Shown here in pieces: positions 12,283 to 59,307 of a DNA stretch of 64,000 nt. The first letter of the stretch is position 1. Every line of letters begins with the position of its first letter. The position numbers and the translations under genes were made by a program. The stretch comes from a virus (Duplodnaviria; Heunggongvirae; Uroviricota; Caudoviricetes), in the IMG/VR virus record IMGVR_UViG_3300038393_000245, positions 12,289 through 76,288 of that record; one strand, given 5' to 3'. The notes under the pieces are model-generated. The model searched no databases and was not told the DNA's origin. It was given only the letters and a program-made list of their open reading frames with translations.

Positions 12283-12357
12283 TGGTGGACCTCCGGGGAA
12301 TCGAACCCCGACTCCCTGCTTGCAAGGCAGGAGTGCTCCCATTATCACTAGAAGCCC
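12283..12357 (-). tRNA. trnA: tRNA-Ala(TGC)
   Basis: G3:U70 pair, CCTGC-CTTGCAA-GCAGG. Confidence 0.93.
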
Positions 12358-17385: not shown

Positions 17386-18252
17386 TTAGGATTTTGTTCT
17401 TTTAGTCTTATTCAACATGTTAGAACTAGCAGTTGCAGGAGCTCCAATCTGAGCTAGATGAACTAGAGATCCTCCAAAGACGTATGACCCGACGTGTTGC
17501 ATCTTCATCCAAGGACAGATCATGATCTTTCCTCCCATTTTTTTAACATATTGACAGAACATATAATCTTCAGACAGATACCTCTTAGTATCTGGGTCTA
17601 TAACAGTATCAAAAAATGCGTGGATCTCTCTAGAACCATCGAATGCTTCGGTCCTTACATGGTCTGGTTTATACGACAGATTTGGATATTGTTTTTTGAA
17701 TTTTTCTAAGACTGGCCTATTCAACATCATGAACCCAGTCCCTATTTCTAGAACTTCTGCTGGCTCATGGATCTTTATTTGTTGAGATCCATTAACTGGA
17801 TTAAATACATAATCACCAACAAAGTTTTCAAGAACTTTGGGATCCTTGTCGGCAACTCCCTTATCTACCGCTAGTTTAATCTTCTCCCATGAAATACACT
17901 TCTTGGGATATGGTCCTCCAATTACATCATAATCTGGATTCTGAATCATAAGGGCGAGGAGGGCTATAACATCATGTGGATCGAATCCGATATCGGAATC
18001 AATGAACATAAGATGAGTGCAGTCACTTCTTAGAAATTCATCTGCACAATAGTTCCTCGCCCTAGTAATCAGGGATTCGTTGAACATGAAGTAGTATTGT
18101 AATGCTAACCCGTATTGGGTTGCTAAAGCTGAAAGATGAGCGATAGATTTACAAAACATTCCACAACAATTTCCTCCGTACATAGGAGTAGCAATCATTA
18201 TCTTATGTTTTCTTAAGACATCACTCTCAATATTAATCGAAATCCCTGACAC
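17386..18252 (-). CDS. GT-A fold glycosyltransferase-like protein
   Basis: IMIATPMYGG, ITRARN, FIDSDIGF (DxD), GTGFMM and LSEDYMFC. Confidence 0.75.
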   Translation of the reverse strand: MSGISINIESDVLRKHKIMIATPMYGGNCCGMFCKSIAHLSALATQYGLALQYYFMFNESLITRARNYCADEFLRSDCTHLMFIDSDIGFDPHDVIALLALMIQNPDYDVIGGPYPKKCISWEKIKLAVDKGVADKDPKVLENFVGDYVFNPVNGSQQIKIHEPAEVLEIGTGFMMLNRPVLEKFKKQYPNLSYKPDHVRTEAFDGSREIHAFFDTVIDPDTKRYLSEDYMFCQYVKKMGGKIMICPWMKMQHVGSYVFGGSLVHLAQIGAPATASSNMLNKTKRTKS

Positions 18253-18258
18253 GTATTA

Positions 18259-18858
18259 TTACTTCTTAGTCGCTCTTGCTCTGTCAGAATCGCTGAAAGT
18301 AGTTCTAAGTCCACTAGATGCGTACGCGCCCGTATTTATGGCCATAAACTTCATTTCATCTGCAAGATTATTGGTTGAGATATTGTATGATTTACTATAA
18401 TCAATACCAATCGATTTAGCCTGATCAACAACTCTATCGAAATTAGCTCCTAGGAATACAACCTCCCAGTTGCGATCTTCAGCTCGAGCTAGTTTCTCTC
18501 GGATTACCTCCTTAGTATACTTCTTAGAAGTATTTTCTTCTCCATCAGTCATCACAACGATGTACGCTTTTTCAGGAGATTCTTCAAAAGCTTTGTCTAG
18601 AAGACGAGCCATCGAATCTAGAAGAGGGGTTCCACCTCTTGGGCGAGCCTCTGACTCATTAAGATCCTTAAATCCTTTAGCCGTAGTATTTCGGAGTTCG
18701 AGATAACTCACGTCTCCATTATATCCACTGTCAAAAGCTGCTATATAAACGTTAGTATCTCCGTTTAGCTCTTTGACATACGCATTAAGTGCTCCGATAG
18801 TGTCGGACCACTGCGATCCCATAGAACCTGAACGGTCTAATAGTACATAAACACGCAT
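18259..18858 (-). CDS. von Willebrand factor A domain protein
   Basis: LLDRSGSM MIDAS, GGTPLLD and MTDGEEN. Confidence 0.88.
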   Translation of the reverse strand: MRVYVLLDRSGSMGSQWSDTIGALNAYVKELNGDTNVYIAAFDSGYNGDVSYLELRNTTAKGFKDLNESEARPRGGTPLLDSMARLLDKAFEESPEKAYIVVMTDGEENTSKKYTKEVIREKLARAEDRNWEVVFLGANFDRVVDQAKSIGIDYSKSYNISTNNLADEMKFMAINTGAYASSGLRTTFSDSDRARATKK

Positions 18859-19185: not shown

Positions 19186-20400
19186 TTATGCTAAAAAATC
19201 TACGATAGTCTTGGATTGTTTTTCTTCCCAGATCTCGTGAGACTGATGAGCATTTACTTGATACGTATAATTCGAATCTAGGTATGGTCGATTTCCAAGG
19301 AGAACTTCCTTTACTTCAACTGCCATATCCTTGGCAGTATTAACTGGAACGTTCTGACATATATGATTCGCAGATTTCTTCGGGTTAAGAAGTTCAAAGT
19401 CTTCAGGCATTCCCATAATTGAAAGAGCCTCTCGGTAGTTAATATACCGATCCTGATCTGGATGAGTTAGCATCGATGGATAATGTCCTACAAACGCTCC
19501 AATAAAATCCTTCGGAACAATGGTTCCTCGACGCATTACATTTCCTCCAGAAGCGAGCTTAGCATATTTGTACTTACACTTCTCAACTTCTTTATCATAA
19601 CCATGCTTAGACAACCAATCTCCTACTTGCTTATAATTGTATCCCTGTTGCTCTATGAACGAGAATACATCGTTAGATCGAACTTTTAGAAATTCCATCT
19701 TATCATGAGAGAATTGTCTATGAGTAAGACCACCGTACATTTCCTCTAAAATAAATCGATAATATGGATCATCTTTAGATGGAGTTTTGGGATTGATTGG
19801 TTCTTGCATCGAATTGCTTCTAGCATTTCTGATAACATCCTCAATCTTAGTCCATGGTCTGTTATAGTATCCTAGGAGAGGAGTCTTTGTTCCTTTCCAA
19901 AAGAAGTAAAATGTTCTCTCTCGAACTTGAGGAGTTCCATGGAGTAGTGATTTTGTTCGATATACGGTCATGGAATAACCGTTATCAAGACCTATCTTTC
20001 GGACTTGGTTACGAATATCTTCTCCAATTTTTCCAGCAAACCCAGGGGCGTTCTCACCTAAGAAAACAGTTGGTTTTAGTGTTCCTAGGACGTATTGGGC
20101 CGACTTTATCATCCATTGATTGTTTGGATTATTCGTTCCGAATCCATGGCTAAGCTGACTGAGACCGGCGCATGGACAAATAGATGTAACTACATCAACT
20201 TTAGGCAGTGGATTATGTGGTTTATCTACATAATGATACGGTAAATCAATATTTTTCTGGTTTCTATAATAGTGTAACAAATGCTGTTCATTAGATTGAA
20301 ACCCTTCATAAGTCATGAAGTATTCAGGTGGAGCATTGAATACTTCATGACTTGCTAGAGTCATACCACCTATGAGAGGAACAATTGACGCATGCTTCAC
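19186..20400 (-). CDS. DNA cytosine-C5 methyltransferase-like protein
   Basis: Catalytic CPCAGLS (motif IV), GENAP (VI), PQVRERTF (VIII) and QNVP (X); divergent motif I IVPLIGG. Confidence 0.75.
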   Translation of the reverse strand: MKHASIVPLIGGMTLASHEVFNAPPEYFMTYEGFQSNEQHLLHYYRNQKNIDLPYHYVDKPHNPLPKVDVVTSICPCAGLSQLSHGFGTNNPNNQWMIKSAQYVLGTLKPTVFLGENAPGFAGKIGEDIRNQVRKIGLDNGYSMTVYRTKSLLHGTPQVRERTFYFFWKGTKTPLLGYYNRPWTKIEDVIRNARSNSMQEPINPKTPSKDDPYYRFILEEMYGGLTHRQFSHDKMEFLKVRSNDVFSFIEQQGYNYKQVGDWLSKHGYDKEVEKCKYKYAKLASGGNVMRRGTIVPKDFIGAFVGHYPSMLTHPDQDRYINYREALSIMGMPEDFELLNPKKSANHICQNVPVNTAKDMAVEVKEVLLGNRPYLDSNYTYQVNAHQSHEIWEEKQSKTIVDFLA

Positions 20401-20446: not shown

Positions 20447-21595
20447 TTAAAAGAATGAGTCCAGTGATGCTGATGGAGGAGTTACAGGATGGGCCGGAAG
20501 ACCTTGTTTCTTAGGGTCTTTAATTTGAGTTGTATTATATTCTACACCGGTCCAATGTGGATATGACATCCGTGAAAGGTGAACGGACTTCTTATACTCC
20601 ATTGCGTGGAGATTTAGTTCACCATTCTTATTTAGAAGATATTCAGTCCAACGAATGAACTTTACTTTGCTCTGCGAGCCCTTGCAAAGTTGCTCAAGAT
20701 AATCATTGAACTCTTTGCGAGCTACCATACGCTCTTCCCATGAACCCCAGAATGGTTTCTTCATAAAGTAGCCAGACTGTGGAAGCTTACGAGCCTCTTC
20801 CTCACATGGAAGGAGTTCATAGATGCCGACTGACTTAAGATTAGGAAACTGATCGTATAGCGCATCTGCAGCGATCTTATATTCCATCGCAAGATTGATG
20901 GGATCTGGCCAGAGGTCAGTACCTTCTTTAACCTCTTTTCGACAGAAGTGGTGCCTTAGGTCGATGTTTCCAAAATAAATCTCTACATTCTCCACTTGTT
21001 CTGGAGAATCGTAAGCGTCCATTATGAATGAACTCAATCCTGTTCTAAGAGCTCCACGAAGCGTTTTATAAGGAACTGAATTAACCATCCATCCAGGGCG
21101 ATACATGCAAATGGAATGACTATCTCCAATAACGATATTAGGAGTGACATGAGGATACCTCAAAACTTGAGAGGACTCCATTCTCTTTAGATTGTCCCAG
21201 TCCACTTCGTCCCATGCTGGATCTGGTGTTCTTCCATTCCCTCGATCTTGAGCTAATTTTTCTTGGAGTTGTCGGTGATAATCTGGGAATGGAATAGCCA
21301 GAGAAATGACCTCTCCCTTAAACAATGTGAGATTTCTGAAGTTCCATGCATATGGAAACCCTTCGGTTCCTCCATAGAGATTCAGGCCTCCAGACCAATC
21401 ATTTCCATGATAGACGTAAACTTTATCAAAATCGTTAAAATCGTGAGTTACGTTTCCACCAAAGTTAACTACAACGTCATCTCCAGTGGACTCACGAATC
21501 ATATCAGCATAAATGACCCCTTGAGCCGCTCTGTGAGATGCCATGAAAGCAGCGATTGGGATGAATGGCGCTACGACGAGTGATCTAGCCATCAT
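20447..21595 (-). CDS. uncharacterised protein with SGNH/GDSL-like C-terminal motifs
   Basis: IGDSH, FGNIDLRHH and SVHLS resemble SGNH blocks I, III and V. Confidence 0.5.
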   Translation of the reverse strand: MMARSLVVAPFIPIAAFMASHRAAQGVIYADMIRESTGDDVVVNFGGNVTHDFNDFDKVYVYHGNDWSGGLNLYGGTEGFPYAWNFRNLTLFKGEVISLAIPFPDYHRQLQEKLAQDRGNGRTPDPAWDEVDWDNLKRMESSQVLRYPHVTPNIVIGDSHSICMYRPGWMVNSVPYKTLRGALRTGLSSFIMDAYDSPEQVENVEIYFGNIDLRHHFCRKEVKEGTDLWPDPINLAMEYKIAADALYDQFPNLKSVGIYELLPCEEEARKLPQSGYFMKKPFWGSWEERMVARKEFNDYLEQLCKGSQSKVKFIRWTEYLLNKNGELNLHAMEYKKSVHLSRMSYPHWTGVEYNTTQIKDPKKQGLPAHPVTPPSASLDSFF

Positions 21596-21756
21596 GCAAA
21601 CCTTTTATTGATGCCTTCAGTTCCGAAAAAATCATCTTGTTCAAGTTCGAGGATCAACTCTAAAAGACCACATTGAAGGAAGTCTTCAACATCATTTTCA
21701 TCGGCGTTTTTAAACCATTCTAGAACGTCGTTTGCATCTATCTCAGATTTAGCCAT
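21592..21756 (-). CDS. acidic hypothetical protein (54 aa)
   Basis: Manual translation MAKSEIDANDVLEWF...; coupled to its neighbours. Confidence 0.55.
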   Translation of the reverse strand: MAKSEIDANDVLEWFKNADENDVEDFLQCGLLELILELEQDDFFGTEGINKRFA

Positions 21757-22006
21757 TATCAACCTCTGTTGGATATTCAGTAATTATTGCTACTTTTGCT
21801 CCACACTTAATAACTGGATTCCCATCCTTAGTCGAGATTATTCGAGCAACTGTATTTCCATCCTTATCTTTGATAGATAGAGTATGAGCCCTTTTGGTTA
21901 CCTTTCCAGATGGAGTATCGCTAACTCTAATCGCAGGAGATGGATCAATCCATTTCCTTTTGTTATTGGAAGCTATAACATTTTTGCATACAGAGATGTA
22001 ATTCAT
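21749..22006 (-). CDS. hypothetical protein
   Basis: 85-aa ORF in operon. Confidence 0.65.
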   Translation of the reverse strand: MNYISVCKNVIASNNKRKWIDPSPAIRVSDTPSGKVTKRAHTLSIKDKDGNTVARIISTKDGNPVIKCGAKVAIITEYPTEVDNG

Positions 22007-23283
22007 GCTAAAAAATTCTCTAATGATGAAGAAGAGGATCCAACCTCTTTTGAAATAGGAGCACTAGCTCTAGCTGAGGCTGCAGCAGGATTTTCTGCTA
22101 ATCGACAGAAAACGTTAAACTGGCAACTAGCGATTTCGCATCCGAAAGTAGTAAATCTTCCAAGCTCAGTGGCTTCTGTATGGTACTTATAATCCAAGTC
22201 AGAAGAAATGTCAAGGAATTTATGTTGCATATCTCTGATTCTCAGGAGAAGATGCATTGCCGTCTTAGTATTGATTATAATATTCGGAAAGAGATTTCTA
22301 AGAGTAGCGGATGCACCCGGGCCAGCCATAACGTAAGGAGCATCCTCGTCAAGATTCCCATGCTCGACATTAAGAGCATCAAATTCTTTCTTATACTCAA
22401 CTTCGATGATAGACTTACTGCCGACTTCAGGCATTCGAGCCAGATTAGATGAAAAGTGATACCCGTAGTAAGGGCCAATCCCTCTAATCGACGTAAGATA
22501 TTCATAACTTCCCTGCATTGTTGGCTTTGTTTTATAAAACGCGGTCCATTCATCCGTCACACTCTTAATCCAAGCGATCATATCAGAAGTTCTCATCTTC
22601 CGATCTGGAGATATGGAATTAGGTGCTATTAATCGTCGTCCATTGAATTCAACACCACGAATATCAATAGGAGTAGGAACAGAACGTGCATAATTTCTTG
22701 CCGCAATTTGAAGTGAGGTTCTTAACTCTGTAGTTCCCCAAATTTGTTCTTTATGATGTGATGCGAGTTCAATATTTCGCATCAGAGTATACTCGTACTC
22801 TTTATCTTCTTTTAATCTTTCGAAGTCGATGAAGGGCTTGTCTGTCCGAACCAAGTACGGGAGATCGTTTGCCTGTCCGGTAATGATATCGAGTGTCCGT
22901 GAAGGACCATAGAACTTAACAATGGCCGAGTTGACCAGTCTATTTTCGAATGAGACATCTTGTCTGTAATATAAGTGCTGATTAAGCCAGATAATCTCGT
23001 CATGGAATGATCGATTGGGGTGAAAATACGGAACTGGTCTGTTGTTAACGACAAATCCTGTGCCAAATGATTCCTGGTGTTGATATCCCGTCTTAACGTA
23101 ATCTTCAAATGATTCATGTGTTTTTCCAATTCGAACACACCATTCTCTCTTATTAAATTCTCGAATAAATGATCCGTACTTTTTTCTAAAGTCGTGATCG
23201 CAATATTTCCATAACTCCTCACCCGATAGGTTTAGAGCTTGTTCCGTCGTCAATTGATCCATGCCAAACATTCTCTTTTTCAA
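22003..23283 (-). CDS. aGPT-PPlase-like (HhH glycosylase fold) DNA base-modifying transferase
   Basis: HhH-like SIRGIGPYYGYHF followed by AGPGA..TL and a C-terminal CEIASCQF, as in alpha-glutamyl/putrescinyl-thymine pyrophosphorylase families. Confidence 0.6.
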   Translation of the reverse strand: MKKRMFGMDQLTTEQALNLSGEELWKYCDHDFRKKYGSFIREFNKREWCVRIGKTHESFEDYVKTGYQHQESFGTGFVVNNRPVPYFHPNRSFHDEIIWLNQHLYYRQDVSFENRLVNSAIVKFYGPSRTLDIITGQANDLPYLVRTDKPFIDFERLKEDKEYEYTLMRNIELASHHKEQIWGTTELRTSLQIAARNYARSVPTPIDIRGVEFNGRRLIAPNSISPDRKMRTSDMIAWIKSVTDEWTAFYKTKPTMQGSYEYLTSIRGIGPYYGYHFSSNLARMPEVGSKSIIEVEYKKEFDALNVEHGNLDEDAPYVMAGPGASATLRNLFPNIIINTKTAMHLLLRIRDMQHKFLDISSDLDYKYHTEATELGRFTTFGCEIASCQFNVFCRLAENPAAASARASAPISKEVGSSSSSLENFLA

Positions 23284-23653
23284 CTAGGTCATGAACAATT
23301 CGTACGACCTTTACTCGAGGACACTCTTGTTCGATAATATTCGCTTGAACAGGGTCGTCCTCATAGTGGATTCCAATATCGACTCCGTGATCAAGGAGAT
23401 AATTGAGCTTAGAGGCTTTGTACTTTCCGGAACCTTCTCTAGTCTTGGTTTCAAACTTAACAGGGTTCATGTATACTCTAGAGTTTTGAATTCCATTATC
23501 TCTTAGCCATTTAATAGTATAATCGGCCTCATCAAAATAAGAACGACCTGTAATAATAACATCTTCGGGTCTTGGTCGTAACCCGATATATTTGCCCATA
23601 TTTATTACACCATCGATGTCATAGGAATTAATCACGCCAACTCCTATCCTCAT
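23219..23653 (-). CDS. HAD-like phosphatase
   Basis: YDIDGV (DxD), ITGR, K and HYEDD motifs I-IV. Confidence 0.7.
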   Translation of the reverse strand: MRIGVGVINSYDIDGVINMGKYIGLRPRPEDVIITGRSYFDEADYTIKWLRDNGIQNSRVYMNPVKFETKTREGSGKYKASKLNYLLDHGVDIGIHYEDDPVQANIIEQECPRVKVVRIVHDLVEKENVWHGSIDDGTSSKPIG

Positions 23654-24122
23654 CGACTCTAAATTGAAGCCATCTAATCATATCATCAATAGTCTCTACT
23701 AAAGGAATACCATGATACTCACACACGATATCAACATTTCCTTTCCTCCAATATCCAGGAGGACAGCAAACAACTATGTCTTTATTATGATGTAGACCTA
23801 ATTCGAGAAGAGTTATGGGAGCCTGACCATTTGGATCAAAGCAATATGTTATAACATCGGCTTTACTTTGAGCATCCAATTCCCACAAAACTTGTTCTTT
23901 GAATTGTGCATTATGAATACTCTGTTCCCAAGTCGAATCCCAATCTGTTCTCCTTGGATTATAGATATCAACTGGATATTCTTCAAGAGACCTTATGACT
24001 TGGGTCTGCCAATCAATAGCAGACCCCATGTCGATACTTCCACCAAGAAAGATAGAAGTATTAAGCCTCTCGTTCCTATCAATTTGTTGTGGAGCGAGAA
24101 ATACTCTTTGCATTATTTCCAA
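23628..24122 (-). CDS. nucleoside 2-deoxyribosyltransferase-like protein
   Basis: IFLGGSI..WQ, YNPRR.DWD, EQVLWEL and APITLLELGLH. Confidence 0.85.
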   Translation of the reverse strand: MEIMQRVFLAPQQIDRNERLNTSIFLGGSIDMGSAIDWQTQVIRSLEEYPVDIYNPRRTDWDSTWEQSIHNAQFKEQVLWELDAQSKADVITYCFDPNGQAPITLLELGLHHNKDIVVCCPPGYWRKGNVDIVCEYHGIPLVETIDDMIRWLQFRVDEDRSWRD

Positions 24123-25354
24123 GCCTCAAGTTTCTTTTCATAAGAAGTTGGCTGAGCTTTTGGAGTATTATCGATATCAGAAACAATCCTAATTGGAGTA
24201 GTCGGAAGATTATTTTGAGCTAGAGAATTGGTAATTCTACGAGTTGCCAAGGCTTCACACTCTCGATGAGCATCGTCGATCATCATCTGAGTTGGAGGAG
24301 TCTTCTGAGTAGCAGCCGAAGGACCGCGCAGGGAGCCAACCAATCCCATCTCGCGAGCAACTGTTACGTATCGGATAGCATCGATAACAACTCCAGCTGA
24401 GTTTGGAGAATCCTGAACAGATAGTCGTGCGTCAAAAATGAGGGGAGCCCCTCCGAAGCCCTTCGCTTCGATTCGGAAATGAGCGACCTTATTGTCACCA
24501 TGGTAAGCAATGTAAGATGATGGACCGGCGTAAATACCGTTCTTTGGGACTGGGATTCCTCGAATGTCATTCTGACTCCTGATTACGTTTTCTTTAGAAA
24601 TCTTCTTCGAAGCGAGACGGCTCTGGTCCATCATGTTAAGGAAGTCGGTATTTCCACCATGGTTGGTCTGCTCATGGAATTGGACAGTGCAACCACGGTT
24701 AAAGAAGAGCTCCTGCAGTGCTTGGCTCATGACTGATGCTCCAAGCTGTGACCGCATGTCATCTCCAATAGCAGGGATTCCAGCCTCTTTGATTCGTGTT
24801 TCCCACTTAGGATCGGAAACAATGAATACAGGAATGCAGTTTACAAATGGAACCTTGGCTTCAAGACATCCTTCAATATAGAATTCTGTAGCTTCCTGAG
24901 AACCGACAGGTAGATAGTTAAGAAGAACGTCTACTTCATTATCCTTAAGGTCTTTAACGAGTTGTTCATGGGTGAGTTGTTCAGATTCTTCATCGACTCG
25001 GAAAGCTTCATCCTCATCGAAATCTGACATGTGAGATGCGACTCCATCAAGAACTCGACCCATTTTCACTTTGACGATTCTAGCTCCAATGCTCATTAAT
25101 GCTGCGTTGGAAACATTAAAATCCATAGCACAATTTGGTCGAGAAAAGATTGCCTCTTGAAGAGGTTTACCAACTTTTCGGGAATCGACATCATATGCGA
25201 GAACAAACTCGATATGCTCTGCCTTATATCCACCGATGTCTGGAAATGCCAGACCATCTGTCTGACCTGTTTCTGAATAGAGAGCAACTCCCTCAATAAG
25301 GGACTTTGCACAGTTGCCGACGCCTACGACGGCGACACGAATTTTATTCTTCAT
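24113..25354 (-). CDS. ino1: myo-inositol-1-phosphate synthase (Ino1)
   Basis: VGVGNCAKSL, NYLPVGS, FVNCIP, IGDD..SQLGA, GGNTDFLNM, SKKISK, GDNK and DSPNSAGVVIDAIR. Confidence 0.95.
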   Translation of the reverse strand: MKNKIRVAVVGVGNCAKSLIEGVALYSETGQTDGLAFPDIGGYKAEHIEFVLAYDVDSRKVGKPLQEAIFSRPNCAMDFNVSNAALMSIGARIVKVKMGRVLDGVASHMSDFDEDEAFRVDEESEQLTHEQLVKDLKDNEVDVLLNYLPVGSQEATEFYIEGCLEAKVPFVNCIPVFIVSDPKWETRIKEAGIPAIGDDMRSQLGASVMSQALQELFFNRGCTVQFHEQTNHGGNTDFLNMMDQSRLASKKISKENVIRSQNDIRGIPVPKNGIYAGPSSYIAYHGDNKVAHFRIEAKGFGGAPLIFDARLSVQDSPNSAGVVIDAIRYVTVAREMGLVGSLRGPSAATQKTPPTQMMIDDAHRECEALATRRITNSLAQNNLPTTPIRIVSDIDNTPKAQPTSYEKKLEAWK

Positions 25355-25374
25355 TGATATCCTTTCATATCAGT

Positions 25375-25440
25375 TGGTGACCCGGTAGCGGCTATAGCCT
25401 TTTGGCCTCTATCGAGGGTAGCCGGGGAATACAATGTATT
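25375..25440 (-). promoter_or_regulatory. GC-rich structured leader upstream of ino1
   Basis: CCCGG...CCGGG, CTC-GATA-GAG, GCC-AAAA-GGC and palindrome GGCTATAGCC in an otherwise AT-rich intergenic region. Confidence 0.45.
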
Positions 25441-25445
25441 CGATT

Positions 25446-25453
25446 TATTTATA
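25446..25453 (-). promoter_or_regulatory. late promoter motif upstream of ino1
   Basis: Exact TATAAATA overlapping the upstream stop codon. Confidence 0.4.
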
Positions 25454-25877
25454 GTGAAAGATATTTTCGGCACTCATCGAGTTTTTGATTAATGAATCTA
25501 TCATCATTAATCTGTCTATTGAGTGGCGAAGGATGAGGTAGTTTGAAGTGGTGGATGCCGGCCTTCGTTAAAGCTTCAGCGGCAAAATTCCCTAAAGCAA
25601 CTACCTTAGTAAACTTATATAGGGCTTTCCTTAAATTGTCAAGGTTTACATCACTAATTTTGCATTTTCCTGGATAAGGATAAGCATTCATGAATGTAAA
25701 CGTATCTAAACCAAGCTTATCTATCCAATCATTTAATCTTGGAAACGTATTACCATTCTTTGCAGCTCTTGCAGATGGATTTTGTCCGACAAAAGCTACG
25801 ATGTTCGAGTCAGCCTCATTAATTAGTTCTACGTTCAGTAGTCCTTCAAGCGTCGAACCAATCTCAATCAATTTCAA
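25449..25877 (-). CDS. uracil-DNA glycosylase superfamily protein
   Basis: FVGQNPS, VVALG..A..AL and LPHPSPLN motifs. Confidence 0.7.
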   Translation of the reverse strand: MKLIEIGSTLEGLLNVELINEADSNIVAFVGQNPSARAAKNGNTFPRLNDWIDKLGLDTFTFMNAYPYPGKCKISDVNLDNLRKALYKFTKVVALGNFAAEALTKAGIHHFKLPHPSPLNRQINDDRFINQKLDECRKYLSL

Positions 25878-26322
25878 TATCCATCTCTACGACTTCAATC
25901 CCCGCTTCGGCAAAATATGATTTAGTCTTATTGACCGAATCAAGCCACCTATCATATAATCTCTCTGGTAAGACTGGAGCGACGACTCTAATGATTCCAG
26001 CCTGTATCATATGGACAGCGCATCTATCGCACGATAGGAATGGCCAAGTATAAAGGGTGCATTCCTTAACTGTAGTTGGTGAATTGATTACTGCATTCAT
26101 TTCGCAATGAACGATCATACTATATTTTGTTGGTCTGTCGTTCAATCTCTCTGAAGTATCATTAAGACGACTTGGAAATCCATTATATCCGACTGATACA
26201 ATATGCCGATTCTCATCAACAATTACCGCTCCAGTCTGAGTTGATGGATCTTTACTCCAAGTCGACACTTCTCGTGCTAGCCGGAGAAATCGGGTGTCCC
26301 ACTTCTTTTTCGTCATATGCAT
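25864..26322 (-). CDS. cd: dCMP deaminase
   Basis: WSKDPSTQTGAVIV, VGYNG, HCEMNA and SCDRCA. Confidence 0.92.
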   Translation of the reverse strand: MHMTKKKWDTRFLRLAREVSTWSKDPSTQTGAVIVDENRHIVSVGYNGFPSRLNDTSERLNDRPTKYSMIVHCEMNAVINSPTTVKECTLYTWPFLSCDRCAVHMIQAGIIRVVAPVLPERLYDRWLDSVNKTKSYFAEAGIEVVEMDIEID

Positions 26323-26542
26323 CCATTAAACTTCCAAATGCGCGTTCGAAGGCACTCATATCGTGAGTTCCATCATCAACGTCAAGATAAAATTGAAATC
26401 CTAGAAATATGATGGCAAAAGTTCTCCTCTTTGGATATATTTTGCTTGGTTTCTCATATTGAAATCTAGGAAACCATATCCAATAGAATGGATTAAGTCC
26501 GATTCTTATTGAAATTTCAGAGTTTTTAATATATTCAATCAT
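26252..26542 (-). CDS. hypothetical protein
   Basis: 96-aa ORF coupled to gp42. Confidence 0.6.
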   Translation of the reverse strand: MIEYIKNSEISIRIGLNPFYWIWFPRFQYEKPSKIYPKRRTFAIIFLGFQFYLDVDDGTHDMSAFERAFGSLMDAYDEKEVGHPISPASTRSVDLE

Positions 26543-27201
26543 TACTTAACCAAATTAAAATGTTTTTCGTATACGTGAAGCGATCCTACCTGCCAGTATA
26601 TGTTCCCCATTGGAATTCGTAGAGCATCAGATAAAAAGAATAGAACATGCCTCTGCCATGCTCGATCATTTTTGAATCCATATACGACGTCATTGCTTCT
26701 CATATTAACAATAGAGTGAACGTGATTATCTCTTACGACGTATTGAACGGTGTTAGTGCATATAAAGTCGCTCATTCCATCCGTGTTGTATTCAGTTTGG
26801 ATAGAAGGACGAGTATATATCATTATAGCTCTTCGAGATTCTGGATCCTTCTGAAGAGTCCTTAAACAATTAAGAAACTGGCTTCCATTTTCTTCAGACC
26901 AGATTAAGAATCCATAGTTTGAATTAATCCTTCCATCAGGAGTGGCGACTTGTTTCCAAATCTGAGGAACTGGAGGAGGAATGTCATTGACATTTAGAGA
27001 TCTTGATTCATACCATTGTATCTCTCGATTAACATAATCTTGGTTAACCGTTCCAAAAATAGAAGGTTCATCCGCGACAAAAGATGCTCCAACCATTTCA
27101 ATCATCTTGCAACCGGTCTTATCGGTCACAAAATTTTCATTATGGAGCTCATTTTTAAAATATTCTCGGATATCACTTACGTTTAATCTATTCATTATCA
27201 C
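26542..27201 (-). CDS. gp42: dCMP hydroxymethylase (T4 gp42 homologue)
   Basis: DKTG...GASFVADEP, INSNYG, SRRAIMIYTRPS, SDFICTNTVQY, MRSNDVVYGFKND and GSLHVY closely match T4 gp42; the dCMP-specifying Asp is kept. Confidence 0.93.
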   Translation of the reverse strand: MIMNRLNVSDIREYFKNELHNENFVTDKTGCKMIEMVGASFVADEPSIFGTVNQDYVNREIQWYESRSLNVNDIPPPVPQIWKQVATPDGRINSNYGFLIWSEENGSQFLNCLRTLQKDPESRRAIMIYTRPSIQTEYNTDGMSDFICTNTVQYVVRDNHVHSIVNMRSNDVVYGFKNDRAWQRHVLFFLSDALRIPMGNIYWQVGSLHVYEKHFNLVK

Positions 27202-27677
27202 TCCTGAGCCGCGACTGAATCCTTATGTTCCTCAAAATCTGAGTTAACTCGATCCATCACATCTCGAACGACTCCCTCGAGTGACTTGGGAGTCTTATTT
27301 TCTGTTAACAAAACCTGTTGAGCAGTTTCTTCTAAAGAAGGTAGATATCGATTCAACATATCCCTCTTCTCTTGTTGCCCTTCCATCTTACCTCGAATAT
27401 AAGATACAGCAAAACTTAGGTAATTGATTGCATCTTTGTAAGTATCTTCAAGACTCTCAAAATTCGGTTCCCTAATCTCTCCATTTTCCATAGGTTCGAG
27501 AAGAGACTGTGCTCGAAGAAGCTTTTGATGAACCATATCATGAATGGTCGAGACTCCTCGTCGATAATGCATCGCTTGACGAATATTAGAGTTAGGATTC
27601 TGATAATCAGCGCTCTTCTTAATCTGAAGATCAATACACTCCTGGAGAACTTTCACAGATTCACGCTGTGAAGACAT
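27198..27677 (-). CDS. Nmad1/DUF1599-like nucleotide-modification-associated protein
   Basis: LQIKKSADY, K.LRAQSL and ESLEDTYKDAINY; start moved to ATG 27677. Confidence 0.6.
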   Translation of the reverse strand: MSSQRESVKVLQECIDLQIKKSADYQNPNSNIRQAMHYRRGVSTIHDMVHQKLLRAQSLLEPMENGEIREPNFESLEDTYKDAINYLSFAVSYIRGKMEGQQEKRDMLNRYLPSLEETAQQVLLTENKTPKSLEGVVRDVMDRVNSDFEEHKDSVAAQE

Positions 27678-28137
27678 TTTTATATCCTTTATATTTTGAT
27701 GGAGATAGCTTCCACATAGTTGTAGAAGCATTTCTATCTTGTATTATACCAATTTTTACAAGATTTGTCAACCTATAAAATTGACAATATTCTCCATTAA
27801 AGTGTTCTCTGAAGTCATACCTCCTATTAGTTTCAGAATCCTTAATGGATTCATAAAACACAACTTCATTCTGAGGCATATCCGGAACTTCGATAAAGAT
27901 TAATCTATCTACGGATTCACACTTTTTCGATTGATTACACGGAAGACAGAATGAATTGTATTTGTATACAGGAAGGAGAGTCTTAACTTCAACCGTCTTG
28001 CCATTTACAATCATATCCTTCTCATCATCATATTTGTCTTCCGACATTATGACAATCTTACCTTGGCTTTGGAAGAATCTTCTAACGAGCCCTTCTCCAA
28101 CGGCTCCCAGTAATTCTTTACACTGAGATGGTGTCAT
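27661..28137 (-). CDS. putative PD-(D/E)xK nuclease
   Basis: GAVGE..V...D..KDMIV..VEVKT pattern. Confidence 0.5.
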   Translation of the reverse strand: MTPSQCKELLGAVGEGLVRRFFQSQGKIVIMSEDKYDDEKDMIVNGKTVEVKTLLPVYKYNSFCLPCNQSKKCESVDRLIFIEVPDMPQNEVVFYESIKDSETNRRYDFREHFNGEYCQFYRLTNLVKIGIIQDRNASTTMWKLSPSKYKGYKNVFTA

Positions 28138-28625
28138 TCAAATTCTGTGTGAAATAGAGTATAGTCTATTTGATCTAAAAGTCCATGGTTTCCTTCGTGA
28201 GAAGGTCCAACCCATCCCTCTGGTTTAATGAGATCAGGAAGACCTAGAGGATTCGGCCTCTCTGGCTTAATTCCTCTCTCTTTTGTCATATTTGCGTGAT
28301 GAACTCGATTCCACGCTTCTTGGGAATCAACATTATAGATATCGAGTGTTCCAATTGCCACGACACAGAGATCGATCATTGCGTCTACGATATCTTCGGC
28401 CGATGTCGCTGATTTAGCCTCGTCTAGTTCTTCTTGGAGAAATTTTAATCTGAATGATAGCATCTTCCTCAGTTTCTCAGAATCCATTTGAGCGGCCGAT
28501 TCATGAAAACCGTATTTGTCATGCATCTCATTATTATCAAGCCACCAAGGCTTGTCGTAATACAATTCTACTTCTTCAAGATTTAGAAAATTTTCATCTG
28601 ATGTCATATTATTCCTTAGATCCAA
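28134..28625 (-). CDS. MazG/PRA-PH-like NTP pyrophosphohydrolase (candidate dCTPase/dUTPase)
   Basis: LQEELDE...IVDAMIDL, W..VH.ANM.K and LIKPEGW. Confidence 0.8.
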   Translation of the reverse strand: MDLRNNMTSDENFLNLEEVELYYDKPWWLDNNEMHDKYGFHESAAQMDSEKLRKMLSFRLKFLQEELDEAKSATSAEDIVDAMIDLCVVAIGTLDIYNVDSQEAWNRVHHANMTKERGIKPERPNPLGLPDLIKPEGWVGPSHEGNHGLLDQIDYTLFHTEFE

Positions 28626-29134
28626 TCAGGAGGATCTCGATTAGTCCACTTATGTAAGTGGCGTTTAGCTTTTCTATAGTATTCTCGATAGTTATCGACG
28701 TACGAACTTATTTTATACTCATCCGGCATGCAGCACGGTGGAGTGGTCCAATCCCAATCAGTTAATCCAGATGGAGGAGATTGTAGATCATATAATAGTC
28801 TTCCAGTCTTATGCTTCTTTTTATATCGATGAGTATATTCTTGTAAGAGACCATCAAAGTGGTCCACAAGCCAGTTATGATTTGAGACGGATTTTCTAGC
28901 CCAAATAACCGATGGATGATTCTTATGAGTTATACGATAGAATTCTTCATTTCGATAATCAGGGAGGACTCCAGATTCATTTCCATCAATAATCCTATGA
29001 GTCGTTGATAAAATTTGAGCACTCTCCAGAATCATTTTTACTACGTGTTTATCACACTGCATTTTTGCTGATTCGTATGCATCATTTGATAAAAAGAAAA
29101 TGTTCACCTTGATCTTCTCTTCAACAACTTCCAA
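28616..29134 (-). CDS. pyrimidine-dimer DNA glycosylase (DenV family)
   Basis: NIFFL...DKHVVKMILESAQILST, THKNHP..IWAR and EYTHRY.K.H. Confidence 0.75.
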   Translation of the reverse strand: MEVVEEKIKVNIFFLSNDAYESAKMQCDKHVVKMILESAQILSTTHRIIDGNESGVLPDYRNEEFYRITHKNHPSVIWARKSVSNHNWLVDHFDGLLQEYTHRYKKKHKTGRLLYDLQSPPSGLTDWDWTTPPCCMPDEYKISSYVDNYREYYRKAKRHLHKWTNRDPPDWI

Positions 29135-29595
29135 TTCTTAAGAGCTTTTTCTCGATGGAACCTATTGGCTCTATCGATCATTCTTATTCCATCTAAGTGA
29201 TCTAACTCGTGTTGAAAGATTCTTGAACTCATTCCGGTAAACGTTTTAGTGTATGTCTCCCCGTCTGGACCTTCAAAGCGAACTTTAATAACTTTGGGCC
29301 TCTTAACTTTGATTGACATTCCAGGAAACGATAGGCAAGCTTCTTCTAGAACAACTAATTCTTCTCCAGGAATAACGATTCTCGGATTGAAGCACACATA
29401 GGCCGGCTCGCCCTCCATGGCGAAGACTCTATAATTTAATCCAACTTGATTAGCCGCCAACCCAATCCCATTGTTGTCTCTCATGAAATTAACCAATTCA
29501 ATGGCTAATTCTTCGGGATCAACATCTGAATTTTGAAAATCAAATGGAAGGCATTCGGAAGTTAGAATATTATCGTTGTATTCGACTAATTTCAT
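29104..29595 (-). CDS. def: peptide deformylase
   Basis: GIGLAANQVG, EACLS and HELDH motifs. Confidence 0.95.
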   Translation of the reverse strand: MKLVEYNDNILTSECLPFDFQNSDVDPEELAIELVNFMRDNNGIGLAANQVGLNYRVFAMEGEPAYVCFNPRIVIPGEELVVLEEACLSFPGMSIKVKRPKVIKVRFEGPDGETYTKTFTGMSSRIFQHELDHLDGIRMIDRANRFHREKALKNWKLLKRRSR

Positions 29596-55428: not shown

Positions 55429-58029
55429 ATGAATATTGCATTTGTTGATACAGTTGGTTCTCCATACGATGGGTCTACTCCAAACAGCAGAGGATTAGGA
55501 GGATCGGAATCCTCTCTAATCTACATCTCTAGAGAGTTGAGTAGGATTGGACTCGATGTTACAGTATATAATGACTGTTCTAGCCTAGACTGTTCTCCAG
55601 GAACATATGATGGAGTCACTTATAAGACTCTCGATTCTCTAAGCGATAACATCTCGTACGATGTCGTAGTCGTATCTAGAAGCACTAGGCCCTTCACCTC
55701 TATTCGAATAGTTCAAGACGCTAAGTTCAGAGTTCTCTGGATGCATGATACGTTCTGCGATGGAGATGAGGACCTGGAGAGACTCGTTGTGAATGGTCTC
55801 ATAAGCGAGGTATGGACTCTTTCAGACTGGCACACCACGTACGTATCACAGTGTATTCATGGACACCGTCGAATGATGGAAGTCTTGAAGAGGAAGATCT
55901 GGGTGACGAGGAATGGAGTGAATCTCTATCGCCAGTGTGACATGTCACTCAAGAGTAAGAACAACTTCATTTTTAACGCGGCGGTCTCAAAGGGAATGGT
56001 TACTCTCCTGCAAGACGTCTGGCCAAGAGTAAGAGAGAGGATTCCAGAAGCGAATCTAACCATTATTGGCGGCGCGTATCCTCTTAAGAATGCTGATGTT
56101 CAGAATGATCTTCTGTCTCAATTGCGATCCGACCATGATGGAAGAAATGGCGTAAGGTTCACCGGAATCATCAGCCAATCAGACGTGTCGGAATATCTGG
56201 TTCGGTCGGGATTCATGATCTATCCTCAGAGCTTTCCTGAGACTTTTGGAATATCAACCGTAGAATCTCTAGCGTATGGAACTCCAGTGATCTCTGGCAG
56301 GTTTGGTGCCATGGAAGAGACCGCCATCGACTCCGCGTGCTATCTGATGGACTATCCGGTAGATTCAAACGTCTTGTATACGTTTGATAGAGATAGACAT
56401 ATAGAACAATTTGTCGATCTGGTAGTTAATTCCTATAATAATGATTATCTATGGCAACAGAAGCGTAATCTAGCTCTAAGTGTTAGAGAAGTCTGTGAAT
56501 GGTCTAGAGTAGCCCTTCAGTGGAAACAACACCTCTATCGAAAGACAGGAAGATACCTATCAGTCAATGAATATCGCGAGGTTCAACGAATAAACCACAG
56601 AACTCACGAGATATTTAATAAGAGATGGAGTAATATTGAAGAGTGGGCATATTACCCTGAAAGTGAAAAACACCTTGAAGTCATCATCCCATTTTACAAT
56701 TCTTCTCAATACCTTAGGAAGTGCATCGAATCAATAGCTGCTCAAAATTACGAGAGATTTAGAGTCCACCTAATTGATGATTGCTCTTCTGATGACAGTC
56801 AGAGAGTTATCGAAGAATCTATATCAGAATTCAATATTAGAGATAAAGTTCTTCGGTATATCAACGATGATAATGTTGGAGCTCTAGCCAATCAAATAGG
56901 AATTATTAGTCATCTCGACAAGGATAGCATCGTAGTTCTTATTGATGGAGACGATGCACTCTCTAATGACCCGAATATATTTAAAAAGATCAATTCAGAA
57001 TATCATCAAGGTGCCGAGATGACATATGGATCCATGTGGTCTATGGCAGATAACATACCATTAGTCGCACAGGAATATCCAAATGAAGTTTTTGAAGAAA
57101 AGTCCTTTAGAAGTCATAGATTTAATTGGAACATTCCTTACACGCATCTCAGAACGTTCTCTGTTTCTCTATTCAATCATGTTAATCTTAATGATCTCCG
57201 TGATGATAATGGTGTATATTACAAGGCCGGAGGCGACTCAGCACTATTTTATGCACTTATTGAACAATGCAAGGATCGTTTTTCGGTACGACCCATAAGA
57301 GACATCTTGTATCTCTACAATGATATAAATCCTATTAATGATTATAAGATCAACTCAGAAGAACAAACCAAGAACTCTTTGAATATTCTGAGTAAGAAGA
57401 ATCAGACTCCAATTAAAAAGAAGAATCAAAGAATTCTTATAGCCATCCCAACGGCTCAAAATATACACGCTCATACATTTAAGTCGATATATGACCTGGA
57501 TATTCCAGAAGGATTTGAGGTTGACTTCCAATTCTTTTATGGATATTGTGTCGATCAAGTAAGAAATCTTATCGCTAATTTTACGATAGAGAACAACTAT
57601 GATTATCTATTTTCGGTAGATTATGATATCGAATTCGATAGAGATACTCTTAAGAAGTTACTCTCTCACGATAAACATATTGTATCTGGATTGTATATTC
57701 AGAGGAAACCAGGACAGCATATTCTTGAAATATATCGCGATAATGGATTCGGAGGACAGAGTAACGTTGATATCAAGGATCTCCAAAAGAAGCTCGAGCC
57801 GATAGATGGATGTGGTTTCGGTTGTGTTCTTGTCAAGAGTGAGGTTCTTAGAGGGATTGGATATCCTCAGTTCACGTATCATCATGCCATTAAGATAGAA
57901 GATACAATATCAGAAGATGTAGATTTTTGTAGAAAAGCAAAATCTAAAGGATTTAAAATGTTTGCCGACACCACGATATTATGTCGGCACCATGGAAACA
58001 TAGCATTTGGAGTAATGAATGGTAAGTGA
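55429..58029 (+). CDS. three-domain glycosyltransferase (GT4-like + GT2 + GT-A)
   Basis: GLGGSE, LWMHD and ETFGIS..E.LA.G (GT-B); IIPFYN..IDD.S.D, IDGDD (GT2); ILIAIP, SVDYDI, CGFGCVL and SEDVDFC (GT-A). Confidence 0.9.
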   Translation: MNIAFVDTVGSPYDGSTPNSRGLGGSESSLIYISRELSRIGLDVTVYNDCSSLDCSPGTYDGVTYKTLDSLSDNISYDVVVVSRSTRPFTSIRIVQDAKFRVLWMHDTFCDGDEDLERLVVNGLISEVWTLSDWHTTYVSQCIHGHRRMMEVLKRKIWVTRNGVNLYRQCDMSLKSKNNFIFNAAVSKGMVTLLQDVWPRVRERIPEANLTIIGGAYPLKNADVQNDLLSQLRSDHDGRNGVRFTGIISQSDVSEYLVRSGFMIYPQSFPETFGISTVESLAYGTPVISGRFGAMEETAIDSACYLMDYPVDSNVLYTFDRDRHIEQFVDLVVNSYNNDYLWQQKRNLALSVREVCEWSRVALQWKQHLYRKTGRYLSVNEYREVQRINHRTHEIFNKRWSNIEEWAYYPESEKHLEVIIPFYNSSQYLRKCIESIAAQNYERFRVHLIDDCSSDDSQRVIEESISEFNIRDKVLRYINDDNVGALANQIGIISHLDKDSIVVLIDGDDALSNDPNIFKKINSEYHQGAEMTYGSMWSMADNIPLVAQEYPNEVFEEKSFRSHRFNWNIPYTHLRTFSVSLFNHVNLNDLRDDNGVYYKAGGDSALFYALIEQCKDRFSVRPIRDILYLYNDINPINDYKINSEEQTKNSLNILSKKNQTPIKKKNQRILIAIPTAQNIHAHTFKSIYDLDIPEGFEVDFQFFYGYCVDQVRNLIANFTIENNYDYLFSVDYDIEFDRDTLKKLLSHDKHIVSGLYIQRKPGQHILEIYRDNGFGGQSNVDIKDLQKKLEPIDGCGFGCVLVKSEVLRGIGYPQFTYHHAIKIEDTISEDVDFCRKAKSKGFKMFADTTILCRHHGNIAFGVMNGK

Positions 58030-58747
58030 AGTTTATGATACTGAATTTGCTTTAAACGAGTTCAGTATCGCAGGAGAGGTTCAGATGATGGATCGTCTCT
58101 CTCAATTCAATCTTAAAACGATATTCGACGTAGGAGCCAACATTGGAGAATGGTCCAAGATGGCCTTACAACGCAATGAAACTTCTGAGATTCACGCGTT
58201 TGAACCAATGCCATATGTCTTTAGAAATCTTATAAAGAATATATCTAATGATGAGAGAGTGATCCCTAATCCATTCGGACTATCTTCTAAAATGGAAATG
58301 CGAGATATGTTGTTCTCTCGAGATAATGATAGGTTGACGACTCCATGTTTAGAGTTAGCTCGAGAGAATCCAGAAATCATTCCTCTAATAATGGTAGCCG
58401 GAGATGATTATTGTCGAAGCAGAAATATCTATTCAATAGACATTCTTAAGATCGATACTGAGGGTCATGAATTTCAAGTTCTGAAAGGATTTGAAAACAT
58501 GATTAATGAACAGAAAATCAGCCTTATTCAGTTTGAGTACGGGTTCGCGAACGTACTAACCAAAGACTTGTTAATAGATTTTTATCGTTTGCTCAGACCA
58601 TTAGGATACGTCATAGGAATTCAAACTCCAAATGGAGTAGTTTTTAGAGATTATATTCTTCCACACGAAAACTTCATGGGTCCTAATTATGTAGCGGTCC
58701 ATGCTAACGATGCTCATATTATAAACGCTATTCAGGTGAATCCGTGA
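58019..58747 (+). CDS. FkbM family methyltransferase
   Basis: IFDVGANIG, FEP, LKIDTEG.E and IQFEY. Confidence 0.92.
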   Translation: MVSEVYDTEFALNEFSIAGEVQMMDRLSQFNLKTIFDVGANIGEWSKMALQRNETSEIHAFEPMPYVFRNLIKNISNDERVIPNPFGLSSKMEMRDMLFSRDNDRLTTPCLELARENPEIIPLIMVAGDDYCRSRNIYSIDILKIDTEGHEFQVLKGFENMINEQKISLIQFEYGFANVLTKDLLIDFYRLLRPLGYVIGIQTPNGVVFRDYILPHENFMGPNYVAVHANDAHIINAIQVNP

Positions 58748-59307
58748 AAAATCTGTGGGAAGTCTGGCCGGCTGCTTTAAGTTCCGAATATTGTGAATAT
58801 ATCATTCAAAAGGCCAAAAAGAGACCTCCAGTCGATGCTACGATTGGATTTGAATCGGGAGGAGTTCCTAATTCAAATCATAGAACATCTACTATTAGAT
58901 GGTTAGATGTTTTTAATGAAGACAGAGACATCTCAGAAACTTTAATGGGTTTCATAAGAATGTCTAATAGAACAAACTTTGGATTCGATATCTCTACAAT
59001 GAATGAGATACAATTTACTGAATATCATGGAGATTCCAAAGGACACTATGATTGGCACCATGACGTATATTGGGAAAATCCAATGCCATACGATAGAAAA
59101 TTATCTATCGTTGTTCAGCTCAGTGATCCTACAGATTATGAAGGAGGTCAATTTGAATTCTTTGGGATTCCATCTCCCGGAGACGAATGGAAACAACGAG
59201 GATCCGTTTTAATATTTCCATCATTCTTCTACCACAGAGTTCTTCCAGTAACCAGAGGACACAGGATATCTCTTGTATCGTGGATTGAAGGAACTAAGTG
59301 GAGTTAA
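58744..59307 (+). CDS. 2OG-Fe(II) oxygenase (prolyl 4-hydroxylase-like)
   Basis: Q.TEY, Y.WHHD, RKLS.VVQLS.P.DYEGG.F, FPS..YHRV.PVT.G.R.SLV.W. Confidence 0.92.

Follow-up and report, generated by a model that had tools for sequence, protein, structure and literature searches.

myo-Inositol-phosphate synthases (MIPS), known as Ino1 in bacteria and archaea, carry a bound NAD+ with which glucose-6-phosphate is oxidised, cyclised and re-reduced to give inositol-3-phosphate, and the lysine/aspartate network of Ino1 serves ring opening, oxidation, aldol closure and reduction (PMC11348189). An Ino1-like gene is found at positions 24113-25354 (minus strand) of a 64,000-nucleotide (nt) stretch of DNA, called the window below, which covers positions 12,289 to 76,288 of the Caudoviricetes record IMGVR_UViG_3300038393_000245. 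The source genome is a single virus record of 173.6 kb, rated 100% complete by CheckV, and it also encodes a T4-type polymerase, clamp, clamp loader, RegA, gp46/47 and UvsX; hence the synthase is phage-encoded, as the original prediction held. In the window and in other phage lineages, MIPS is accompanied by a small HAD phosphatase. In our estimate, there is a slightly better than even chance that the two form the donor-making branch of an undescribed cyclitol hypermodification of DNA, a reading that builds on the enzyme family, its intact motifs, the MIPS-HAD pairing and a recurrent context of DNA-modification genes.

Phage DNA hypermodifications defeat restriction enzymes and CRISPR, and they are a source of new enzymes and chemistries for biotechnology. 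To our knowledge, the pyrimidine adducts described so far are all sugars, amino acids or polyamines drawn from host pools. In the thymidine hypermodification of phages ViI, M6 and PaMx11, which uses 5-hydroxymethyldeoxyuridine (5-hmdU) kinases and an amino acid:DNA transferase (ADDT), a hydroxymethylpyrimidine is activated and a nucleophile is attached to it; in ViI the nucleophile is an oxygen, through which serine is joined to 5-phosphomethyl-dU (PMC8989533). Genes of the kinase family and ADDT genes flank MIPS in relatives of the window phage. The window differs in that a cyclitol made by the phage would take the place of the host amino acid as nucleophile, that the base would be 5-hydroxymethylcytosine (hmC) made before replication, and that ADDT was not detected in the genome.

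A second system is the arabinosyl-5-hydroxycytosine pathway of RB69 and DLP3, in which a phage sugar-phosphate isomerase, a kinase/nucleotidyltransferase and an HAD phosphatase feed DNA glycosyltransferases (PMC13326640). This is the closest published counterpart of the overall design, since there too the phage brings a sugar-phosphate enzyme and a small phosphatase of the HAD type in a hypermodification cluster built around a ThyA homologue. It proceeds through a nucleoside diphosphate (NDP) sugar, whereas the window phage, Stenotrophomonas phage Moby, Caulobacter phage Cr30 and Ralstonia phage RP13 have no match to NTP_transf_3, the one nucleotidyltransferase family searched. The glucosyl-hmC system of T4 consists of gp42, gp56 and the alpha- and beta-glucosyltransferases. 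The window resembles it in having a gp42 orthologue, a MazG-like pyrophosphohydrolase and a dCMP deaminase, and differs from it in that no Pfam match to either T4 glucosyltransferase was obtained and the cluster holds instead the MIPS-HAD module and proteins of the phrog_17781 type.

The synthase and its phosphatase partner

The MIPS of the window is a protein of 413 amino acids with an ATG start and an AAAGGA ribosome-binding site 7 nt 5' of it. It matches Pfam family PF01658 (Inos-1-P_synth) with E 1.3e-23 and 83.6 bits, the cut-off being 27 (86.8 bits when the genome was searched), and phrog_33138 at 1.4e-155. Residues 3-367 align in one piece with the M. tuberculosis enzyme 1GR0 (E 1.5e-77, 264.6 bits). 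An intact Ino1 had been predicted from six motifs, and all of them (GVGNCA, GDD, GGNTDF, SKKISK, GDNK and DSPNSAG) were found along with the full-length alignment. GVGNCA pairs with the GVGNCA of 1GR0, the N-terminal NAD-binding GxGxxA motif, which is shared with bacterial and archaeal Ino1 together with SKKISK, GDNK, DSPNSAG, the fold and the length. When 12 homologues from phages and bacteria are aligned, residues G11, G13, D199, S202, N231, N235, D237, K250, K254, K289, D315 and K351 are invariant.

These residues lie in the NAD-binding loop and the lysine/aspartate network, the catalytic roles of single residues being presumed. The window protein is unlike the bacterial and archaeal enzymes in being phage-encoded, in ending on a C-terminal tail of about 35 residues without conservation, and in its score of 302 bits against NCBIfam TIGR03450, the actinobacterial mycothiol-type Ino1 equivalog, for which the cut-off is 638. 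Since the score falls below the equivalog cut-off, the protein was placed in the wider family, outside the actinobacterial subfamily. Cellular Ino1 is accompanied by lipid or mycothiol genes, whereas the window MIPS is accompanied by a phage-specific HAD gene. From its sequence, the enzyme looks catalytically intact, and the best explanation, which as a whole we consider somewhat more probable than improbable, has the product of 24113-25354 as a working myo-inositol-1-phosphate synthase. The 94-nt gap 5' of the gene (25355-25448) holds GC-rich, partly self-complementary stretches (CCCCGGCTACC ... GCTACCGGG).

The TIGR03450 score would also suit a paralogue of the MIPS fold with another substrate or product, and the second-best solved relative is indeed of that kind: Ari2 (6K96, 174.7 bits, in two pieces). 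From fructose-6-phosphate, Ari2 makes a cyclitol phosphate with a five-membered ring, which is used for the carbocyclic nucleoside aristeromycin. A phage with an Ari2-like enzyme would make a nucleoside analogue or another cyclitol, for which the setting of MIPS among nucleotide-metabolism genes, including one resembling nucleoside 2-deoxyribosyltransferases (NDT), would be suitable. This NDT-like gene is absent from most lineages, however, and 1GR0 scores 90 bits higher, with one alignment over the full length. At two motifs, SKKISK and DSPNSAG, the protein agrees exactly with Ino1, where Ari2 has SKRQSK and DSSNAAG, and it is 74% identical to a bacterial inositol-3-phosphate synthase. An Ari2-like function is hence regarded as very unlikely.

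MIPS genes are already present in public phage genomes, where they have been annotated in Cr30, in the Menderavirus phages and in RP13, so that the novelty implied by the original prediction does not hold for the bare gene; the informative part is its genomic context. Among 50,697 GenBank/RefSeq phage records, 19 hold homologues annotated as inositol-phosphate synthase, with 45-57% identity: 16 of Stenotrophomonas Menderavirus (Moby, IME-SM1, Mendera, YB07 and others), two of Caulobacter phage Cr30 and one of Ralstonia phage RP13. A large protein database contains thousands of relatives, many of them 70-87% identical and located on contigs of 150-190 kb; for most of the close homologues, a phage or a cellular origin could not be assigned. 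Among cellular relatives with a name, the closest, at the 74% identity given above, is the inositol-3-phosphate synthase of Candidatus Desulfarcum epimagneticum. Phage genomes searched for DNA nearly identical to the region gave no match, and a literature search found no paper on the function of any phage MIPS.

Two genes downstream of MIPS lies a gene for a small phosphatase of 144 amino acids (23219-23653, minus strand). Its HAD motifs (DxDGV, TGR, K and EDD) are all invariant across 10 lineages, and the structure model, with a predicted local distance difference test score (pLDDT) of 88, shows a capless Rossmannoid HAD core. A sequence search against the PDB gave no match, and the fold comparison alone was informative. 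The nearest folds are polynucleotide 3'-phosphatase domains, Pnkp1 at Z 12.6 and T4 Pnkp at Z 12.4 (root-mean-square deviation 2.6 Å over 113 residues), followed by the Lipin/LNS2 phosphatases at Z 11 and generic small-molecule HADs at 8.7 or less. No Pfam family was matched even at E up to 5, and hence none of the IMPase/SuhB family of classical inositol monophosphatases. The family has 78 members among 5.8 billion clusters, all of them unnamed.

This HAD and MIPS co-occur in exactly the same 19 of the 50,697 phage records, and the HAD is found in no others. It lies 3' of MIPS in Moby, Cr30 and RP13 and, according to a synteny script, in 15 of the 20 IMG/VR loci with enough sequence downstream of MIPS; some loci with MIPS followed by HAD have remaining genes that are unrelated to the window. 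In Cr30, the Menderavirus phages and RP13, it is the same HAD gene that comes after MIPS, with DNA-modification genes around the pair. In one locus (L010 of the numbered loci compared) this HAD is missing and an unrelated HAD of the NT5C type is found directly upstream of MIPS. Such a non-orthologous replacement supports a functional pairing of MIPS with a phosphatase. Within the overall explanation, to which we give slightly favourable chances, MIPS and HAD would constitute a mobile two-gene module.

DNA-modification genes around the pair

The neighbourhood of the pair varies between lineages, and the base-modification genes differ accordingly: TET/ADDT in Cr30, 5-hmdU kinases in RP13, 7-deazaguanine genes in Moby and a gp42-type hmC system in the window. 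In Cr30, MIPS, HAD and a P-loop kinase-like gene are grouped with a TET/JBP gene, a dATP/dGTP diphosphohydrolase domain, an ADDT (E 2.4e-54) and a weak match to a TET-associated glycosyltransferase. The Cr30 gene that matches the TET/JBP dioxygenase domain (8.4e-21) is labelled 'putative SNF2 DNA repair protein' in the public record (KF301602.1 59353-60681; L002:3709-5037), and the strong ADDT carries the annotation 'hypothetical'. RP13 has an ADDT-like open reading frame (ORF), an HMUDK_hel protein (E 1.7e-48), a helicase, MIPS, HAD and the 5-hmdU DNA kinase 2 (HMUD2). In Moby, FolE, MIPS, HAD, QueC, DpdA and QueE make up a 7-deazaguanine DNA-modification cluster.

Among the uncultured loci, L016/L017 and L024 contain a TET/JBP dioxygenase, ADDT, MIPS, HAD and P-loop nucleotide kinase 3, to which L016/L017 add an FkbM methyltransferase gene between TET/JBP and ADDT. 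L015 has ADDT, a GT4 glycosyltransferase and MIPS. In L014 and L025, a protein that matches the N-terminal half of phrog_17781 (N-half) is followed by MIPS, FkbM and HAD, and in L014 then by an HMUDK_hel protein. The richest variant is the cluster of L010 (3558-10345), with ADDT, a cytidylyltransferase-like/cupin fusion, an ORF of 210 amino acids without Pfam match, GT4, the NT5C-type HAD, MIPS and TET/JBP; its nucleotidyltransferase hints at an NDP-activated donor in that lineage. FkbM genes stand between or beside MIPS and HAD at L014:9226-9933, L025:3563-4291, L016:3243-4181 and L018:4132-4863, the FkbM-like ORF of L018 being called from its SAM-binding motif only.

The viral loci counted were those with a full-length MIPS, and L026, with a partial match of 55 residues, was left out. 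In all three cultured lineages, DNA-hypermodification enzymes are encoded no more than about 5 kb from the pair, and the same is true of each distinct uncultured context apart from L023; L023 is a contig of 7 kb binned to a giant-virus metagenome-assembled genome. ADDT homologues were found in just 348 of the 50,697 phage records. Two of the three cultured lineages and four uncultured contexts have ADDT at a distance of about 5 kb or less from MIPS, which for so rare a gene is far beyond chance.

This proximity counts against an explanation in which the pair is a stand-alone auxiliary metabolic module, its product being free myo-inositol that the infected cell could not otherwise make, used as osmolyte, lipid head group or part of a virion glycan, and the DNA-modification neighbours reflecting no more than shared early expression. 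The intact MIPS fits such a module, a dedicated phosphatase would yield free inositol, and T4-like phages do place accessory early genes among core replication genes. The HAD, however, resembles polynucleotide phosphatases and not known inositol monophosphatases. That many hosts lack inositol synthesis, as originally suggested, is plausible, none of the control genomes (Caulobacter, E. coli and B. subtilis) having a PF01658 match. The absence of MIPS from such host-type genomes suits the stand-alone module; a host without inositol synthesis fits the DNA-modification reading as well, because a phage in need of a cyclitol must then bring its own synthase.

The original prediction had named virion glycans and a compatible solute as fates of the inositol, neither of which finds support as the leading one. 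For a solute, no phage-encoded route was found: searches with PF01066 and PF12804 gave no CDP-alcohol phosphatidyltransferase and no NTP_transf_3 cytidylyltransferase in the window phage, Moby, Cr30 or RP13, while the same lipid and solute searches gave matches in 13-14 of 14 control genomes. As far as the sequences go, these four phages thus appear to have no phage-encoded route to phosphatidylinositol or to solutes of the di-inositol-phosphate type, which weighs against the stand-alone module too. For virion glycans, the glycosyltransferase (GT) operon in question, of which 55429-58029 had been named, lies 30 kb away on the other strand. This operon (55429-59307) encodes a GT1/GT2 fusion, an FkbM methyltransferase and a 2-oxoglutarate (2OG) oxygenase. 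Its FkbM gene (58019-58747, plus strand; PF05050, 1.4e-17) is the only one in the genome, and the operon is linked to MIPS, weakly, only by the occurrence of FkbM genes alongside MIPS in some other phages. This can be read in favour of a stand-alone module. The recurrent FkbM may point to O-methylation of the cyclitol or to a link between MIPS cluster and GT operon, and any connection of the window FkbM with the MIPS module is uncertain. Taken together, a stand-alone module appears rather unlikely.

The breadth of the association, which extends over three chemistries (hmC, TET/ADDT and 7-deazaguanine), would be compatible with a metabolic or anti-defence role that involves no adduct. The pair would then drain glucose-6-phosphate, or its product would be a small molecule with an effect on host sugar-nucleotide pools or an inhibitor of a defence directed against modified DNA. 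A literature search gave no precedent for this, and nothing that was tested indicates a specific target. The position directly between ADDT and kinase genes is better suited to a supplier of substrate, and a role of this kind is judged decidedly unlikely.

Gene cluster and base-modification enzymes of the window

Every gene of the window from 28625 down to 19186 is on the minus strand, and their ends mostly overlap. The order is MazG-like, two small ORFs, DUF1599-like, ThyA homologue, an ORF of 96 amino acids, dCMP deaminase, uracil-DNA glycosylase (UDG) superfamily protein and MIPS, followed by the NDT-like gene, HAD, the C-half (426 amino acids), an ORF of 85 amino acids, the N-half (382 amino acids) and a C5-methyltransferase-like gene. 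A sigma-70-type consensus promoter at 27743-27771 (minus strand; TTGACA-17-TATAAT with TG, 12/12 matches) precedes the co-oriented run from the DUF1599-like gene to the C-half. Shared transcription is supported by the overlap of the genes head to tail behind a single consensus promoter, and MIPS is probably co-transcribed with the hydroxymethylcytosine genes.

The ThyA homologue (26542-27201), which gives 279.5 bits to T4 gp42 (1B5E), has retained the catalytic Cys, the Asp that specifies cytosine (KND, compared with RND in T4 and RNN in the D179N mutant structure) and the Asp of RSND. The residues that distinguish a dCMP hydroxymethylase from a 5-hydroxy-dCMP synthase, which is marked by the change of Asp to Asn, have been described (PMC13326640). 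Unlike the enzyme of the arabinosyl pathway, the window homologue keeps Asp at the D169 position and is therefore assigned as a hydroxymethylase, not a 5-hydroxy-dCMP synthase. Because the diagnostic residues of gp42 are kept, the phage is predicted to make DNA with 5-hydroxymethylcytosine and not hydroxymethyluracil. A 5-hmdU (thymidine) system, considered at first, was rejected, since the ThyA homologue is a dCMP hydroxymethylase of the gp42 type. The predicted hydroxymethylase would provide the hydroxymethylpyrimidine needed by a hypermodification system of the kinase/ADDT type. No Pfam match to the T4 alpha- and beta-glucosyltransferases was obtained in the genome, the absence being a weak one for PF09198, whose control matched nothing anywhere. 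With these searches negative, no T4-type glucosyltransferase was found that would account for the fate of hmC, which was counted in favour of a cyclitol adduct.

The two proteins encoded downstream of HAD match the halves of a single family, phrog_17781 (795 positions). The C-half (22003-23283) covers the C-terminal part and is related to the helical domain of the 5-hmdU DNA kinases, so that it is a candidate DNA-directed kinase or transferase. Its own match to HMUDK_hel is borderline (23.2 bits, 26.1 summed, cut-off 25) and a P-loop was not identified; its homologue in L014 matches the same domain at 1.4e-14 and 54.6 bits. The N-half (20447-21595) comprises an N-terminal alpha/beta domain and a domain resembling SGNH hydrolases, with a conserved GDSH motif. 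In its model (pLDDT 80), the SGNH-hydrolase fold extends over residues 146-348 (Z 12.2), and there is a weak whole-chain likeness to the T4 beta-glucosyltransferase (Foldseek template-modelling score about 0.3).

The N-half occupies the place that ADDT has in other clusters, and it was considered as a divergent ADDT; hhalign gave a probability of 0.2% and the fold was that of SGNH hydrolases instead. The C-half proved unrelated to ADDT by profile comparison, and unrelated to any solved structure. That the two halves share the phylogenetic profile of MIPS was likewise ruled out, as they are found in Aeromonas phages 44RR2.8t and 31, which have no MIPS. Aeromonas phage 31 has one annotated ORF, PHG31ORF233c, that spans both halves. 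In the window they are separated by the conserved ORF of 85 amino acids (21749-22006), of which 80-86% identical copies are found in the same place in L004 and L006, and in L014 they flank MIPS, FkbM and HAD.

The MazG/PRA-PH-like nucleotide pyrophosphohydrolase (28134-28625; PF01503, 1.3e-7; phrog_671) may act as a dCTPase like T4 gp56. The DUF1599-like protein (27198-27731), of 'nucleotide modification associated domain 1', has a weak match to PF07659 below the cut-off (0.0039). The dCMP deaminase is encoded at 25864-26322 (PF00383, 7e-16), with the conserved ORF of 96 amino acids at 26252-26542. Directly upstream of MIPS is the UDG-superfamily gene (25449-25877; PF03167, 3.2e-8), which is syntenic and conserved 5' of MIPS in the window group, and L014 has one too. 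The NDT-like gene lies between MIPS and HAD (23628-24122; PF15891, 1.5e-34) and, among the loci compared, has homologues in L007-L009 only. The gene for a C5 cytosine DNA methyltransferase-like protein (19186-20400; PF00145, 2.5e-17) is syntenic in L005-L013, L018, L021 and L022, and it is kept although a gp42-type hydroxymethylase should leave little unmodified C. Between it and the gp45 clamp are genes for a VWA-domain protein (18259-18858) and a conserved phrog_1574 protein (17386-18252), both syntenic in related contigs. On the other side of the cluster, a phage-encoded peptide deformylase (29104-29595; PF01327, 3.8e-39) is conserved in related contigs.

A putative cyclitol adduct of DNA

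In the mechanism proposed here, MIPS would convert host glucose-6-phosphate to inositol-3-phosphate, and together with HAD it would supply an inositol-type cyclitol in hosts unable to make one. The gp42-type hydroxymethylase, the MazG-like pyrophosphohydrolase and the dCMP deaminase would put 5-hydroxymethylcytosine into the DNA. Directly after the module come the genes of DNA-directed enzymes, namely the protein related to 5-hmdU DNA kinases, the SGNH-domain protein and the C5-methyltransferase-like protein. An oxygen of the cyclitol or its phosphate would form the bond to the 5-methylene carbon of hydroxymethylcytosine after activation of that carbon, similar to the attachment of serine in ViI; in the TET/ADDT phages, the same joining would take place on a hydroxymethylpyrimidine. 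The HAD would remove the phosphate either from free inositol phosphate or from the DNA-bound adduct. Dephosphorylation after attachment is slightly favoured because the modelled HAD resembles DNA-end phosphatases. In some lineages, FkbM methyltransferases and GT4 enzymes might tailor the adduct further.

In its wider form, the proposal holds that in several unrelated groups of large phages, including Cr30, RP13 and the Menderavirus phages, a cyclitol of the inositol type, made by the phage, is covalently attached to a DNA base, MIPS and the Pnkp-like HAD being a portable donor cassette for at least three base-activation chemistries (pre-replicative hmC, TET/kinase/ADDT and 7-deazaguanine). To this generalisation we assign a chance a little short of even.

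Several observations count against a cyclitol adduct. The identity of 74% with a named cellular relative leaves MIPS an ordinary Ino1 of the bacterial type, in which specialisation is not evident. T4-like genomes cluster their early nucleotide-metabolism genes, which inflates chance adjacency. Moby lacks gp42, TET, ADDT and HMUDK, and no hydroxymethylpyrimidine route was found in it; with this gene content, one attachment chemistry cannot hold in all lineages. The window genome has no match to PF18724 (ADDT/aGPT-Pplase), and profile comparison relates neither the N-half nor the C-half to ADDT. The occurrence of both halves in Aeromonas T4-like phages without MIPS means that these enzymes do not need inositol. 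There is no HAD beside MIPS in L018 and L021/L022, and a literature search found no inositol-bearing DNA base.

No paper describing a cyclitol hypermodification of DNA was found in the literature search either. The interest of the MIPS-HAD cassette lies in the regularity with which it is found inside clusters of DNA-modification genes, which points to a putative cyclitol-bearing base, undescribed so far. Inositol and glucose share one formula; an inositol adduct on hmC would therefore have the same mass as glucosyl-hmC and could be misread as the latter in routine mass spectrometry. As the module is carried by three cultured phage lineages, the idea is open to direct testing. If true, it would explain the presence of Ino1 in phages whose hosts lack inositol, and a cyclitol adduct whose donor is supplied by phage genes would represent a new chemical class of DNA hypermodification that has never been described.

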